A program made the translations under genes and the position numbers. The notes under the pieces are model-generated. The model had not been told where the DNA came from. It ran no database searches and worked only from the letters and a program-made list of their open reading frames with translations. A DNA stretch of 64,000 bases from Candidatus Saccharimonadota bacterium. Lineage in GTDB: Bacteria; Patescibacteriota; Saccharimonadia; Saccharimonadales; Saccharimonadaceae. The DNA is taken from contig CAJPQK010000001.1 in assembly GCA_905372835.1 (NCBI GenBank), positions 360,336 to 424,335 on the forward strand, in the 5' to 3' direction. Below, piece after piece: positions 56,152-61,681 of the stretch (position 1 is its first letter; each line of letters starts with the position of its first letter).

Positions 56152-56250
56152 TTTTCTGCCTTTTTATGTTTTAATTCACGTATCTTTTGATTATAGCACA
56201 AAAAGCTTGTGTTTGTCAAATAGTTGGCAGCTAACAGTGAACATCAGGGA

Positions 56251-57447
56251 TTATTCGCCCAGGAATGACTGTTTGACCCGCTGGTAGGCGTCGCGGAATG
56301 GCACGCCTTTTTCCACCAATTCGTTAATCTTAGCAACAGTGTAGAGCTCATCGGTCATCGCCTCAGCTAATCGGTCGGTGTTGGCTTCCAGCTCACTGAC
56401 GCAGAGTGCCAAGACCTCCAGGGTGTCGAGCGCTGACGTAAAGGCGTCCATAGTGATTTTTTTGGTCAACTGCAGGTCGCGGTGGTAGCCGCTGCCGGCG
56501 CCCGTCGAAATGGCTTGGAGCTGCAGGGCGTAATTTGGATAGGCGCGGGCGGTGGCACGCATGATCTCAAAGACGTCGTAGTTGCGTTTGTGCGGCATAA
56601 TGGACGAGCCAGTGGTCATGGTGACAGGCAGTTTGAAATAGTTAAACTCTTGAGAGGTAAACAGCAACATGTCTTCAGCGAATTTGCCAGCAAAGACCAT
56701 GATTGGATTGAGCGCCTGTATGGCAATTAGTTCAAACACGCCGCGCGACAGGCCGCAGTACATTGGATTTTCCTGTACTTTAGCGAAGCCCAACTCACTG
56801 GTCGTCATCTGGCGGTCAAGTGGCAGGGTAACACCAAAGCCAGCAGCACTGCCCAGCGGGTTTTGGTCGATGGCGGCGATGCTGTGTGTGACTAATTGCT
56901 GGAGGTCATGAAAGGCATCGTGGTAAGAACCGAGCCACATGCTGACCGTGGTTGGCATGGCTTTTTGGGTGTGGGTGTAGCCAGGCATTTCAGTTTGACC
57001 GATGGTAGCAATTTTGCCAGCATAGGCCTGAGCAACTGCTGCTAATTTTTCAGCTACTGCTGCAAGTTCCGTTTTGATGAACAGTCGCATCATCACCAAA
57101 GCTTGGTCGTTGCGGCTTCGGCCAGTGTGAACCTTTTTGCCGATGGGGCCGAGCTTTTCTGTCAGATACAGCTCAATGGCGGTGTGGCCATCTTCGTGCT
57201 CGCTGGTGAGGGTGAAGGCACCAGTTTTCCACTCGTTCAGCAGCTCGTCCAAGGCGGCTGCTAATTGTTGATACTCGTCGCTGGTCAATACGCCAATTTT
57301 TTCTAGCATGTGAGCGTGCGCTTTAGTGGCGGTGATATCATGCCCCAGCAAATGTTGGTCCAGCACTTGGTCGTCGCCAACGGTGTATGACTCGACTAGT
57401 GGGTGGAGTGAGCCGGTTGCGGTTGATTGCCATAGTTTATTTGCCAT
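56251..57447 (-). CDS. argH: argininosuccinate lyase (short form)
   Basis: Fumarate-lyase signature GSSIMPHKRN, TGRSRNDQ, MPGYTHTQKA. 398 aa, shorter at the C-terminus than typical ArgH. Confidence 0.9.
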   Translation of the reverse strand: MANKLWQSTATGSLHPLVESYTVGDDQVLDQHLLGHDITATKAHAHMLEKIGVLTSDEYQQLAAALDELLNEWKTGAFTLTSEHEDGHTAIELYLTEKLGPIGKKVHTGRSRNDQALVMMRLFIKTELAAVAEKLAAVAQAYAGKIATIGQTEMPGYTHTQKAMPTTVSMWLGSYHDAFHDLQQLVTHSIAAIDQNPLGSAAGFGVTLPLDRQMTTSELGFAKVQENPMYCGLSRGVFELIAIQALNPIMVFAGKFAEDMLLFTSQEFNYFKLPVTMTTGSSIMPHKRNYDVFEIMRATARAYPNYALQLQAISTGAGSGYHRDLQLTKKITMDAFTSALDTLEVLALCVSELEANTDRLAEAMTDELYTVAKINELVEKGVPFRDAYQRVKQSFLGE

Positions 57448-58714
57448 ATGAGTATGCTCCTTCAGCTGTTCGCTGACTTAATGAATATAATTCAATGAAT
57501 CCGGCGGACGAATTCTGGTTGAATGCGGTGTTGGAATCAAACGTTGCAAGATTGATATCAAACAACGAATGCGGTGAGTCCACGCTGACGACGGTGATGG
57601 TACCTTTGTATAGGCGGACCGTCACTGTGCCGGTGACTTTTTGGTTCTGATCATCAATGTAGGCGTTAATGTGATGGACGGCTGGCTCGTACCACTGAGC
57701 CGCGTAGGTGAGGTAGGCCCATTTTTTGTCCATTTCGGCTTTGAGTTCATTTTCAACACGAGTTGACACCAATTGCTCAAGCTTTTGATGAGCAGCAATC
57801 AAGATGGCAGCGCCAGGGTTTTCGTAGACACCGCGCACTTTCAGGCCAACCAATCGATCTTCAATGAGGGTCGATACACCGACGCCGTGTTTGCGGCCGA
57901 GTTGGTTACAGTGCTGGATGAGTGCTTGGAGTGAAAAGTGACGGTTGTCGACGGCAACGGGCACACCTTTGATGAATTTGATGGTGATATCTTCGGCTTC
58001 ATCTGGCGTGTATTTGATGGTTGAACACCAATTGAGGATGGCGTGGTAGTTTGGCTTGAGTGATGGCGATTCTATCTCGCCGCCCTCACTGGTGATACCC
58101 CACATGTTTTCATCGGTTGAGTAGGGTGACTCCTGAGTGTGTGGCACGGGGATGTTGTGCTTCTTGGCATAGGCAAGCTCTTCCTCTCGGCCCATACTCC
58201 ACTCACGCACTGGTGCCAAGATTTTGAGTTTCGGATTGAGCGTGGTGATATAGGTCTCGAAGCGAACTTGGTCGTTGCCTTTGCCGGTGGCACCGTGTGC
58301 GATGACGTTGCAATTGTACTTTTCGGCATATTCGACGGCTAATTGCGAGATGATAATGCGCCCGAGTGGCGTGCAGAGGGCGTAGCCGCCTTGGTAGTCA
58401 GCGTTGGCTTTGATGGCCAGCGACAACAGCTCATCGGCGAAGTGGTTGCGGGCGTCAACCGTGATGGTTTCTATGGCGCCGAGTTTTTTGGCTTTTTCGG
58501 CGATGGCATCGAGATCATCAACCGTTTGGCCGATATTGACCGTTAGGGTGATGACCTTGCAATTATATTTTTCTTGTAACCACGTGAGCATGACGGATGT
58601 GTCGAGGCCTCCCGAATAGAGCAAGAGGCACGTATCGAACTCACCGTTCACGGCTTCGTGACTGGCAACCTTGGTGTAGTGGGGCGCGTCGTGGTCCATA
58701 TCCTTCCTTTCCAT
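57437..58714 (-). CDS. argG: argininosuccinate synthase
   Basis: LLYSGGLDTSVM (ATP PPase motif) and the central ArgG region. The alternative start, ATG at 58699, is preceded by GGAAGG and may be the true start. Overlaps argH by 11 nt. Confidence 0.93.
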   Translation of the reverse strand: MERKDMDHDAPHYTKVASHEAVNGEFDTCLLLYSGGLDTSVMLTWLQEKYNCKVITLTVNIGQTVDDLDAIAEKAKKLGAIETITVDARNHFADELLSLAIKANADYQGGYALCTPLGRIIISQLAVEYAEKYNCNVIAHGATGKGNDQVRFETYITTLNPKLKILAPVREWSMGREEELAYAKKHNIPVPHTQESPYSTDENMWGITSEGGEIESPSLKPNYHAILNWCSTIKYTPDEAEDITIKFIKGVPVAVDNRHFSLQALIQHCNQLGRKHGVGVSTLIEDRLVGLKVRGVYENPGAAILIAAHQKLEQLVSTRVENELKAEMDKKWAYLTYAAQWYEPAVHHINAYIDDQNQKVTGTVTVRLYKGTITVVSVDSPHSLFDINLATFDSNTAFNQNSSAGFIELYSLSQRTAEGAYSYGK

Positions 58715-58720
58715 AATAAC

Positions 58721-58747
58721 AAAAAGAGCCGCTCGGACGAGGGCTCT
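58721..58747 (-). terminator. attenuator terminator (segments 3:4) upstream of argG
   Basis: Minus sense: AGAGCCCTC gtcc GAGcGGCTCT followed by TTTTTGTTATT and then the argG ATG. No upstream minus-strand gene needs a terminator here. Confidence 0.6.
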
Positions 58748-58773
58748 GTAGTTGGTTTTTACTATACGACTAA

Positions 58774-58830
58774 TTAGCCCTCTGGGTCAGAGCGGCGACG
58801 ACGAACAACGATGTTGTGTCGATATGTCAT
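58774..58830 (-). CDS. candidate Arg-rich leader peptide of the argGH attenuator
   Basis: ATG ACA TAT CGA CAC AAC ATC GTT GTT CGT CGT CGC CGC TCT GAC CCA GAG GGC TAA = MTYRHNIVVRRRRSDPEG. TATGGT lies 6 nt upstream of the ATG. Confidence 0.55.
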   Translation of the reverse strand: MTYRHNIVVRRRRSDPEG

Positions 58831-58903
58831 ATTGCTACCATACTGCGGGTGATTTTCAAAATATTTTTATATATAAATTGCGATGCGTTACAATAGTAAT
58901 GAT

Positions 58904-60880
58904 ATGAATGCCTTTAATCTCGTCTCCAACTATCAGCCGACCGGCGACCAGCCAACGGCGATTGCTCAGTTGGTGGATGGTTTGGAGCGGGGCGAGCGCG
59001 AGCAAACGCTGCTGGGCGTGACCGGTTCAGGTAAGACCTTTACTATGGCGAATATTATTGCCCGAGCTAATGTGCCAACGCTGGTGCTGGCGCACAATAA
59101 GACTTTGGCGGCGCAGCTGTTTTCTGAGTTTAAGGAGTTTTTTCCGGATAACGAGGTGCATTATTTCGTTAGCTATTTTGATTATTATCAGCCGGAAGCC
59201 TACATCGCCAGTAGCGACACTTACATTGAGAAAGATTCGAAGATTAATGATGAAATCGATCGGCTGCGGCATGCGGCCACGTCGGCGCTGCTAACGCGAC
59301 GCGATGTTATCATCGTGGCCAGTGTGTCCTGTATTTATGGCATTGGTTCGCCGGAGACGTACGCCGATATGGCCATTCAATTGACGGTCGGCGAGCGGCG
59401 GGTGCAGGACAAGTTCATCCGCCTGCTAACTGACATTCAGTATAAGCGTAATGATGTTGACTTTGCACGTGGTACTTTCAGGGTACGCGGTGACGTGGTG
59501 GATATTTTCCCGGCTGGGCAGGACACGGCGGTGCGGGTGGAATTTTTTGGCGATGAAGTTGAGAGACTAACGCGAATCGATCCGCTGACTGGCGAGATTT
59601 TGGACCAGCCAGCTAGCCTGACGATTTTTCCGTCCAGCCACTATTCGACGCCGCGTGAACGAATTGAAAAAGCCATCATGGGCATTGAAAAAGAGTTTGA
59701 TGAGCGGCTGAAATGGTTTGAATCACACGACAAATTGCTGGAGGCGCAGCGCCTCAGTCAACGCACCAAATATGACCTAGAAATGCTCAAGGAAACCGGC
59801 TTTGTTAAAGGTATTGAGAATTATTCGCGCTATTTGACTGACCGCGAGCCGGGCGAGCAGCCAGCGACCTTGATCGATTATTTTCCGGACGATTGGCTGC
59901 TGCTGGTCGATGAGTCGCACATGACCTTGCCGCAAGTTCGCGGCATGTATAACGGCGACCGGGCGCGCAAGGAAGTGTTGGTGGAGCATGGGTTTCGTCT
60001 GCCGAGTGCGCTGGATAACCGTCCGCTCAGGTTTGATGAGTTTGATCAGCATATTCATCAGGCGATTTATGTTTCCGCTACGCCGGGCGACTATGAAATT
60101 GCTCATTCTCCAAAGCCGGCTGAACAGTTGATTCGGCCGACGGGGCTGCTTGATCCGCCGATTGAGGTGCGGCCGACTGAGGGGCAGGTTGATGATTTGA
60201 TGGAGGAGATTCGCCAGACTATTGCCAACGGTCACCGCGTATTGGTGACTACCTTGACCAAGCGCATGGCTGAGGACTTAAGCGCTTACTTGACCGACAA
60301 TGGCGTGAAAACGGCGTATCTACACAGCGAAATTGACACATTAGAGCGCGGCGATATTCTCAAAGATCTGCGACTGGGGACGTACGATGTCTTGGTTGGT
60401 ATTAATTTGCTGCGCGAGGGATTGGACCTACCGGAAGTCAGTTTGGTGGCGATCATGGATGCTGATAAAGAAGGGTTCCTCCGTAGTGAGCAGGCGCTGA
60501 TTCAGACGATTGGCCGGGCGGCGCGGCACGTGGACGGGCGGGTGCTGATGTATGGCGACAATGTGACTGACAGTATGCGGCGAGCGATTGATGAGACGAA
60601 TCGTCGGCGTGCAATTCAGCAGCAATATAATGAAGCGCATGGCATTACGCCGCAAACCATCCAGAAGAAGATTGACGATGGCCTGCGTTCTATCATCCCG
60701 CAAAAGGAATCCGACAAAAAGCCAAAGCTTGACTTGAAGAAGATTCCAAAGGATGAATATCCAACGCTGATCAAGGAGTTGACCGGTCAAATGGAACTGC
60801 ATAGCGCCAATCTAGAATTTGAAAAAGCCGCGGAGCTGCGTGATTTGATTGCAGAAATTAAGCAAACAATGGTACACTAA
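58904..60880 (+). CDS. uvrB: excinuclease ABC subunit B
   Basis: [20 protein letters not shown], Walker [13 protein letters not shown] box, C-terminal UVR domain ([12 protein letters not shown]). Start moved from 58883 to 58904. Confidence 0.96.
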
Positions 60881-60908
60881 AGATAACCATAATAAGGAGG
60901 AGAATTAT

Positions 60909-61628
60909 ATGGCAGAATTGAAAACAACAGAAACTCCAGTCGTCGAGCAAGCTGAGTACATGGCTCCGCGCGCTGTGTCGCAAGCAAAGTGGCTCACATT
61001 TGAATACGCATTAGCAATGGTTTCAGTAACATTTGCTGCAATCACCAGTGTAGTACTCGTACCAATGTTGTTCGGTATGTGGTCTGCAAAAGAGGCAATG
61101 TCGTTTGGTTTGATGTTGAGTGGCTCGATCACTGCAAACATTTTGGCCGTTGGTATTTTGGCAGTACTATTTTCAGTGTTGGCATTTGTCCTATTTGGCC
61201 GTGTAACGCGCGCAATCGCTGCTGACCGCAGTGGGTACACTGGCCGATTGGCCTACAAACTGACAACCTATGGTAGCTTGTTCATGATCGTATTGGCGGC
61301 GTTGCCACTGGTTGCAAATCTCATCAGTGTATTGATTAGCTCGTTGCTGTTGATCGGCGTTTCAGATGCTGGTTCCGTATATACAGCATTGTACTTGGGC
61401 AACTTCTTGCCATCACTGGTGTGCTTGGCAGTATTGGCAGTTGTGGTATTTTTCATTGGTAAAATCATCAACGGCTACAACAAATCACGCCCATTGGCTA
61501 TCACGTTGATCGCAATCACCGGTGTTGTCGCAGTTGCCTTGGCTATTACCTTGGCAGTGCAGGCTCATGACAAGCCAAGCATCAAAAAGTCAAACTTCAA
61601 GTACAACTCAAGTTACTTACTCGACTAG
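60909..61628 (+). CDS. hypothetical integral membrane protein
   Basis: AAGGAGGAG Shine-Dalgarno then ATG at 60909 (MAELKTTETP...). About 6 TM helices. Confidence 0.6.
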   Translation: MAELKTTETPVVEQAEYMAPRAVSQAKWLTFEYALAMVSVTFAAITSVVLVPMLFGMWSAKEAMSFGLMLSGSITANILAVGILAVLFSVLAFVLFGRVTRAIAADRSGYTGRLAYKLTTYGSLFMIVLAALPLVANLISVLISSLLLIGVSDAGSVYTALYLGNFLPSLVCLAVLAVVVFFIGKIINGYNKSRPLAITLIAITGVVAVALAITLAVQAHDKPSIKKSNFKYNSSYLLD

Positions 61629-61645: not shown

Positions 61646-61681
61646 ATCACTCGCTCCTAGATATGGGGGCGAGTGATTTTC
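61646..61681 (+). terminator. rho-independent terminator
   Basis: ATCACTCGC ... GCGAGTGAT, a 9-bp stem followed by TTTT. Confidence 0.75.

Follow-up and report, generated by a model that had tools for sequence, protein, structure and literature searches.

Arginine biosynthesis is a textbook repressor-controlled (ArgR) pathway and not one of those governed by attenuation, and to our knowledge control of arg genes at the RNA level has been described only as the T-boxes of Firmicutes. A comparative study gives RNA-level control of arginine genes only as T-boxes (PMC1262725), and arginine is absent from a broad survey of attenuators (PMC2965389). Here we analysed a 64,000-nucleotide stretch of DNA from Candidatus Saccharimonadota bacterium (contig CAJPQK010000001.1, positions 360,336 to 424,335; hereafter the window), in which a short open reading frame (ORF) with a run of arginine codons and a set of alternative hairpins precede argG-argH, the genes that convert citrulline to arginine. 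Judging from the conservation and the predicted folding of this leader in relatives, we consider it likely that it represents a family of arginine-specific, ribosome-mediated (leader-peptide) transcription attenuators controlling argG-argH. As a conserved Arg-codon attenuator, it would fill a gap in RNA-level arginine control.

The classical attenuators (trpL, hisL, pheL, leuL, thrL, ilvL/ivbL) resemble the argG leader in that they combine a short ORF carrying tandem codons of the end product with overlapping 2:3 and 3:4 helices and an intrinsic terminator in front of the first structural gene, and in that a codon stall favours (in the argG leader, is predicted to favour) the antiterminator; their 1:2 hairpin has a weakly supported counterpart in the window. 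The argG leader differs from them by sensing, as predicted, arginine, by its occurrence in Patescibacteria/Saccharibacteria, and by being apparently leaderless, without a Shine-Dalgarno sequence; what appears to be new is the arginine specificity, the phylum and the leaderless initiation, while the mechanism itself is textbook, though its employment for arginine by epibionts with reduced genomes was not to be expected. Arg T-boxes of Firmicutes (RF00230) answer the signal predicted for the argG leader, uncharged tRNA-Arg, with the same terminator/antiterminator output on the same gene. Their sensor, however, is an RNA of 200-300 nt that binds the tRNA directly, whereas in the window element it would be a ribosome translating a leader of ~110 nt, and with the cut-off relaxed to E <= 10 the region examined in the window still had no RF00230 match. 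The leaderless poly-Cys short ORFs of mycobacteria act mainly through a translational or Rho-linked mechanism and not through a 2:3 / 3:4 intrinsic-terminator switch. They are similar in that runs of codons for a single amino acid attenuate a downstream operon in response to that amino acid (bioRxiv 10.1101/834739; PMC4633059), but they are concerned with cysteine and are found in Actinobacteria. As to arginine itself, tandem Arg codons of Salmonella speF orf34 (speFL) report the supply of arginine, in that the ribosome pauses and the mRNA adopts alternative folds (PMC6386406). There the output is Rho-dependent termination and RNase G decay of the ornithine decarboxylase mRNA, in contrast to the predicted intrinsic terminator of the argG leader, and the speFL peptide (DUF2618) has 34 amino acids with a conserved HIRRxxH, whereas the window peptide, MTYRHNIVVRRRRSDPEG, has no such motif and is followed by argG. 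Likewise, the Arg codons of the Staphylococcus aureus rbfL leader peptide sense arginine limitation via ribosome pausing (PMC13009471), but they are the rare AGA/AGG and act by blocking a ribosome-binding site, so that translation is repressed at low arginine; the argG leader uses the common CGU/CGC, and its predicted response to low arginine is to switch on read-through of transcription.

The sequence-only reading of this locus had proposed an Arg-codon attenuator, of which no described case was known to it, and indeed none was present in Rfam 15, NCBIfam or the searched literature, although, as seen above, Arg-sensing upstream ORFs (uORFs) with other outputs exist. Neither the region in the window nor any of 13 related loci matched an Rfam 15 family at its gathering threshold, and the leader is not homologous in sequence to any Rfam leader. 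Phe_leader (RF01859) gave a full-length match of 29.4 bits (E = 0.007), below its gathering score of 55, and the leader contains no Phe codon; this match reflects shared architecture only, and the argG leader is not a Phe_leader member. NCBIfam holds no model for the leader peptides, and an exact look-up in a 15-billion-protein collection showed that they have never been called as genes. Literature searches, whose coverage was incomplete so that absence is not proof, returned no described Arg-codon transcription attenuator for arginine biosynthesis and nothing linking Patescibacteria with leader peptides or attenuation.

The leader ORF occupies positions 58774-58830 on the minus strand (ATG at 58830-58828, TAA at 58776-58774) and reads, exactly as first claimed, ATG ACA TAT CGA CAC AAC ATC GTT GTT CGT CGT CGC CGC TCT GAC CCA GAG GGC TAA. 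Arginine accounts for 5 of its 18 codons, and four of these stand in tandem as the putative regulatory codons CGU CGU CGC CGC (codons 10-13, 58792-58803). The bare Arg run is unexceptional within the window, where RRRR occurs in 7 of 1285 short ORFs (~0.5%); it is the position, the conservation and the coupled structures that set this ORF apart from chance, and a pattern search revealed nothing comparable to the leader element elsewhere in the 64 kb. There is no minus-strand gene upstream, as had been stated, since uvrB is divergent and runs on the plus strand from 58883, with its UvrB domains confirmed. Downstream, 74 nt separate the end of the leader ORF from the start of argG, which encodes an argininosuccinate synthase of 420 amino acids (57437-58699, minus strand; homologous to PF00764/PF20979). 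The argG start had originally been placed directly after the terminator tail and had to be corrected: the ATG at 58714 reads ATA in most relatives, and the true start is the conserved ATG at 58699, 16 nt beyond the U-tract and behind the Shine-Dalgarno sequence AAGGAAGGA (58701-58709).

Four segments of the minus strand can pair in alternative ways. Segment 1, GCCGCUCU (58789-58796), is the partner of segment 2 and, in untranslated RNA, of segment 4; segment 2, AGAGGGCU (58776-58783), which forms the 5' strand of the antiterminator, covers the final sense codons and extends by one base into the stop codon. Segment 3, AGAGCCCUC (58739-58747), is common to the antiterminator, with segment 2, and to the terminator, with segment 4, GAGCGGCUCU (58725-58734), the 3' half of the terminator, to which the U-tract UUUUGUUAUU (58715-58724) is joined. 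Using RNAfold, we recovered all of the proposed 2:3, 3:4 and 1:4 pairings in the window sequence. The 3:4 terminator hairpin (58747-58715) has 9 bp, one bulged C and a GUCC loop, with energies between -11.3 and -13.0 kcal/mol, one of them -12.7; it is followed by UUUUGUU, and a simple terminator scanner missed it with its bulge. The 2:3 antiterminator, GAGGGCU:AGCCCUC, has 7 bp plus an internal stem at -13.1 kcal/mol, so that the comparison of 2:3 with 3:4, suggested at the outset as a check, gave two states of close energy. The full leader reached a minimum free energy of -39.6 kcal/mol with 1:4 nested around 2:3, and the 143-nt leader region folded at -46, with a z of -4.0 against shuffles. 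In the window a 1:2 hairpin can form as well (8 bp with a bulge, -10.9 kcal/mol), but across lineages this part of the proposal had no statistical support, as discussed below.

From these elements we infer the following course of events. Transcription would start at, or adjoining, the leader AUG, and a 70S ribosome would translate the 18 codons while RNA polymerase advances. When charged tRNA-Arg is ample, the ribosome would reach the UAA and cover segment 2, upon which 3:4 together with the U-tract would end the transcript 16 nt short of argG. Under a shortage of charged tRNA-Arg, by contrast, the ribosome would stall on CGU CGU CGC CGC and cover segment 1, leaving segment 2, which lies at least 9 nt downstream, free to pair with the newly made segment 3; no terminator would form, and argG-argH would be transcribed. 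RNA that is not translated would adopt either 1:2 with 3:4 or 1:4 around 2:3, and termination would be expected in both cases.

Whether relatives retain the short ORF with its Arg run had been set beforehand as the comparative test of this proposal, and the result was positive both among close loci and in divergent lineages. In an ArgG scan with one genome per species, the closest proteins, 95-99% identical, came from oral Saccharibacteria near Candidatus Nanosynbacter, among which the window is thereby placed, and the leader ORF plus terminator were found in 59 of the 59 Nanosynbacter-like loci that include upstream DNA. At the DNA level, 18 different leaders occur among these loci; they are either 57 or 63 nt long, the difference being an in-frame 6-nt indel, and their Arg run has undergone three synonymous changes and a single non-synonymous one; both the indel and the pattern of changes are signs of leader translation. 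Further ArgG homologues were sampled at falling identity and their contigs retrieved, which yielded 11 divergent lineages carrying the element at ArgG identities of 85-65%. All Saccharibacteria-type loci from 85% down to 66% had the same layout, and the element was also present at a single locus of Patescibacteria outside Saccharibacteria, its ArgG (65%) bearing the label Magasanikbacteria. The layout consists of a uORF of 14-23 codons, 2-4 consecutive CGN Arg codons, and a hairpin with a U-tract located 16-40 nt before argG; in 13 lineages the U-tract amounts to 4-7 U directly after a GC-rich hairpin and does not overlap the argG Shine-Dalgarno sequence. The leader peptides of the divergent lineages (MTTTHNVIRRRRSLAEG, MTYRISTSVIRRRSLS, MIISQHNEIRRRRTRTHEG, MIVNQLIVVRRRRALYAEG, MKIIIRNKFRRTLD, MNIVNSGEKERRRPCL, MKRTSQNLSLRRRNYHSWKLRRF, MKKIVLKSVVVRRRRSRMHGDCS, MNKNVRVDSERRRRLMAGLAEVN, MVHNYFSQSFRRTRI, MKIFSIAKINVRRRSCRI and MNKLIQTISFRRRSHFRT) have only the Arg run and its position in common, the remainder being unrelated: the run begins at codon 9-12, corresponding to leader nt 25-34, in every lineage. 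A metagenome scan with an ArgG alignment, which relied on generic back-translated patterns and returned hardly anything but distant ArgG genes, contributed one useful locus (L082), and the others served as negative controls. An Arg-run uORF with a terminator within 200 nt upstream was found at none of ~90 argG loci from outside Patescibacteria, and there was no leader at the carAB-argG-argF locus of a 2-Mb genome outside the candidate phyla radiation (CPR).

The coupling between Arg run and hairpins was examined lineage by lineage in 13 lineages, with shuffles that preserve dinucleotides for the Arg-run test. Arg runs of at least the observed length had P <= 0.025 in 11 of the 13, and no amino acid other than arginine formed a run in every lineage. 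The 5' arm of the terminator was complementary to the stretch from the Arg run to 25 nt past the stop codon in every lineage (P <= 0.016 each, 500 shuffles), with energies of -12 to -18 kcal/mol compared with null means of -4 to -7.5. Masking the RNA covered by a ribosome at the stop codon resulted in the full terminator in 12/13 lineages, while L078 retained four of six terminator pairs. When the ribosome was set on the first Arg codon instead, at a stage before segment 4 exists, 13/13 lineages formed an antiterminator, with energies of -14.5 to -21 kcal/mol, that took up 5-10 nt of the terminator arm. On the 18 sequences of the alignable clade, RNAalifold returned exactly the 2:3 helix. More informative than this are stems that change in concert: L077 has GAGGGU / ACCCUC / GAGGGU, a change in three strands, where the window has GAGGGC / GCCCUC / GAGcGGC; L050 has replaced AGAGCC...GGCUCU with AAAGCC...GGCUUU; and L082, L162, L164, L165 and L166 show the same pairing logic with unrelated stem sequences. 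Formal covariation counts on the divergent leaders were weak because their MAFFT alignment was partly wrong, the 3' arms and L080/L163 being misaligned, and for this reason the per-lineage duplex and masking tests were used. Thus, conservation and the geometry predicted in relatives both support the reading of the locus as an Arg-codon attenuator.

The region preceding the leader ORF points to an unusual mode of initiation. In the window, a -10-like hexamer TATGGT (58837-58842, minus strand) lies 6 nt upstream of the leader ATG, with a -35-like hexamer TTGAAA at 58854-58859. Across the lineages, 9 of 13 have TAnnnT 6-7 nt ahead of the uORF start and most others have it at 8-9 nt, compared with 5.1% of all window ATGs that have TAnnnT at 6-7 nt (binomial P = 1.3e-9). 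A good -35 box is often located a further 16-18 nt away, as in TTGACA-17-TATACT-7-ATG and TTGACA-17-TATTAT-6-ATG. No uORF in the 13 lineages is preceded by a Shine-Dalgarno sequence, in contrast to argG, which has one, at the same position, in 11 of the 13. Because the -10 box is only 6-7 nt from the ATG and the uORF lacks a Shine-Dalgarno sequence, transcription probably starts at or adjoining the A of the leader AUG, giving a leaderless transcript; the promoter geometry of relatives argues against a start downstream of the leader ATG. This arrangement also suggests that leaderless translation is in use in this phylum.

Several observations weigh against reading the leader as an attenuator, or against the working of the window's own copy. 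The Arg run is reduced to RR in two lineages and reads RRCR in one genome, the non-synonymous change mentioned above. Among the Arg codons, CGU and CGC are the most frequent, together making up 58%, and the stall would therefore have to occur without the help of rare codons. Across lineages the 1:2 hairpin was no better than shuffles (mean z = -0.9), and covariation in the alignable clade is thin: of the covariation looked for in the segments, one compensatory pair among the seven of 2:3 was found, and otherwise it is minimal, with the GAGGG/CCCUC core invariant. A crude genome scan gave 21 terminator-like hairpins where 21.4 were expected, that is, no general excess. At equilibrium, the window leader favours the terminator once the whole of it is included, the antiterminator being favoured when the last U of segment 4 is omitted, and even with a ribosome on the Arg codon the terminator is preferred in the window and in several lineages when segment 4 is complete. 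Being mixed across lineages, these equilibrium folds were not taken to decide the matter, given that attenuators are under kinetic control. Since the two states are close in energy and equilibrium favours the terminator, the switch must be kinetic; control in classical attenuators is kinetic (co-transcriptional) too. Finally, the window promoter (58837-58859) contains TATGG only once, in place of the TATGGTATGG found in all other related genomes (~60 compared), and this loss of 5 nt cuts the -35/-10 spacer from the 16 nt of relatives to 11 nt, owing to which the window copy may be weakly or aberrantly transcribed. The single-TATGG allele may have arisen by slippage or by an error of assembly, or it may be a true regulatory variant. 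Because of this deletion, our confidence in the attenuator function of the window's own copy is somewhat lower than that in the family as a whole.

Other explanations of the same features were considered. Some nascent leader peptides are sensors by themselves: TnaC senses tryptophan, SpeFL ornithine, and the fungal arginine attenuator peptide (AAP) arginine. The argG leader might similarly encode an arrest peptide, in which free arginine, or some metabolite related to it, is sensed within the ribosome by the nascent RRRR chain instead of tRNA charging being sensed by the codons; nascent-chain sensing of arginine-pathway metabolites by short leader ORFs exists (speF orf34, PMC6386406), and the Arg run is the sole conserved feature of the peptides. 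Known arrest peptides, however, need specific conserved motifs, whereas in the 13 lineages neither residues beyond the Arg run nor the length are conserved, and nothing of the HIRRxxH type occurs in the leader peptide. Moreover, a stall at high arginine would free segment 2 and turn argGH on when arginine is abundant, which is the wrong polarity for biosynthesis, and we regard this explanation as very improbable. Another view would accept the sensing but not the termination, with the 3:4 and 2:3 helices controlling mRNA stability or argG translation and the U-tract not being a working terminator. Outputs of this kind are documented for Arg-codon uORFs, through RNase G for speF orf34 (PMC6386406) and through occlusion of the ribosome-binding site for rbfL (PMC13009471); the genome has no measurable excess of simple terminator motifs, and the hairpin of L078 is weak (-4.6 kcal/mol). 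Against this stands a GC-rich hairpin with 4-7 U in 13/13 lineages, placed 16-40 nt before argG and clear of its Shine-Dalgarno sequence, as well as the presence of clear intrinsic terminators at gene ends in the window. One of these, at 61646-61677 (plus strand), is a very strong terminator-like hairpin with a 14-bp stem and then TTTCTGTAAT, right after ORF 60849-61628, and it shows that genes of this genome can end in an intrinsic terminator. An output other than termination is, in our view, unlikely.

Translation of the short ORF might also be dispensed with altogether, in which case CGYCGYCGY and the hairpins would form an RNA element for a protein or trans factor, or a constitutive transcriptional brake. 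This would agree with the lack of a Shine-Dalgarno sequence before the uORF and with the stem cores GAGGG/CCCUC, which are invariant within one large clade, and translation of the leader is itself predicted from sequence. But an in-frame start and stop flank the Arg run in 13/13 lineages despite sequences that cannot be aligned, the indels are in-frame, the start codon is where a leaderless transcript predicts it, the stop codon is always within ribosome reach of segment 2, and no Rfam family matches; an untranslated element therefore seems to us hardly probable. Likewise, a mere coincidence of an Arg-rich short ORF with an intergenic hairpin might be entertained from the frequency of RRRR among short ORFs of the window, but the element is conserved and argG-specific in every sampled Saccharibacteria lineage, and the lineage statistics effectively refute chance, leaving it a negligible probability. 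The ribosome-mediated attenuator thus remains the reading that we favour.

Control of argG by tRNA-Arg charging seems not to be confined to this element within Patescibacteria. At L167 (1601-1985), a Uhrbacteria-type argG without an Arg uORF is preceded by a T-box-like leader that scored 48.7 bits (E = 1e-9; gathering 93) and contains a 71-nt insertion, the hallmark AGGAUGGUACCGCG box and a terminator, the apparent specifier being CGC (Arg). The Rfam model may miss some of the T-boxes of Patescibacteria. Together with the leader-peptide element, this locus makes it appear that argG is under tRNA-Arg-charging control through two different sensors within the phylum. A weaker candidate relative of the Arg-leader element is found at L169 (1746-1880), upstream of a Peregrinibacteria-type argG, where the candidate uORF MKKTFALVGSRRSWI carries CGG CGG at codons 11-12 and has no obvious -10 adjoining its ATG; the terminator hairpin that follows, ~120 nt ahead of argG, is long and AU-rich. 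In strain TM7x, homologues of both argG and argR are reported absent (PMC12815258); since it has no argG, the element belongs to other Saccharibacteria, the organism of the window included. On balance we lean slightly towards the view that leaderless Arg-codon attenuators are a general gate on citrulline-to-arginine recycling in Saccharibacteria and some Patescibacteria, evolutionarily interchangeable with Arg T-boxes and perhaps the sole arginine-responsive regulator where ArgR is apparently absent.

On this view, no cis-regulatory mechanism that senses an amino acid would have been defined in the CPR before this one, which would also be the first classical arginine attenuator. If the attenuator is real, ultrasmall epibionts with few transcription factors would be using the ribosome as a nutrient sensor. 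The arginine deiminase system supports ATP supply and host attachment in Saccharibacteria (PMC8764695, PMC12815258), and gating argGH by tRNA-Arg would, in our view, prevent an ATP-wasting arginine deiminase–ArgG/ArgH cycle. The element is short and sharply defined and Saccharibacteria can now be manipulated genetically (PMC10633639), which makes the proposal directly testable. With regard to gene neighbourhoods, an arginine deiminase gene (PF02274) is divergent from the argG leader at L076, L077, L080, L163 and L166, argS is convergent after argH at L075, L080, L163 and L166, and an ornithine carbamoyltransferase gene comes after argH at L077. In the clade of the window, uvrB stands in place of the arginine deiminase neighbourhood, and tblastn detected no arginine deiminase, ornithine carbamoyltransferase or neighbour genes of relatives in the 64 kb.

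At two Saccharibacteria loci, L065 (3001-3560) and L066 (3001-3669), the best argG tblastn segment covers only ~560-670 nt, though residues 1-420 were reported, and argG may be frameshifted or disrupted there behind an intact leader. In the window, argG is followed by argH, encoding an argininosuccinate lyase of 398 amino acids (56251-57447, minus strand; PF00206), which has an 11-nt overlap with the argG stop, and then by a gene of the LOG/lysine-decarboxylase family on the same strand (56151-55453). The latter has its own promoter at 56190-56219 (minus strand), an extended sigma-70 sequence TTGACA-18-TG-TATAAT with 12/12 matches, and the regulated unit is therefore leader-argG-argH. On the other side, the uvrB start codon at 58883 lies 52 nt from the leader ATG, with TATATA ahead of it at a gap of 7 nt and without a Shine-Dalgarno sequence (58870-58885, plus strand); the uvrB transcript may also be leaderless, with the divergent uvrB and leader promoters overlapping back to back.

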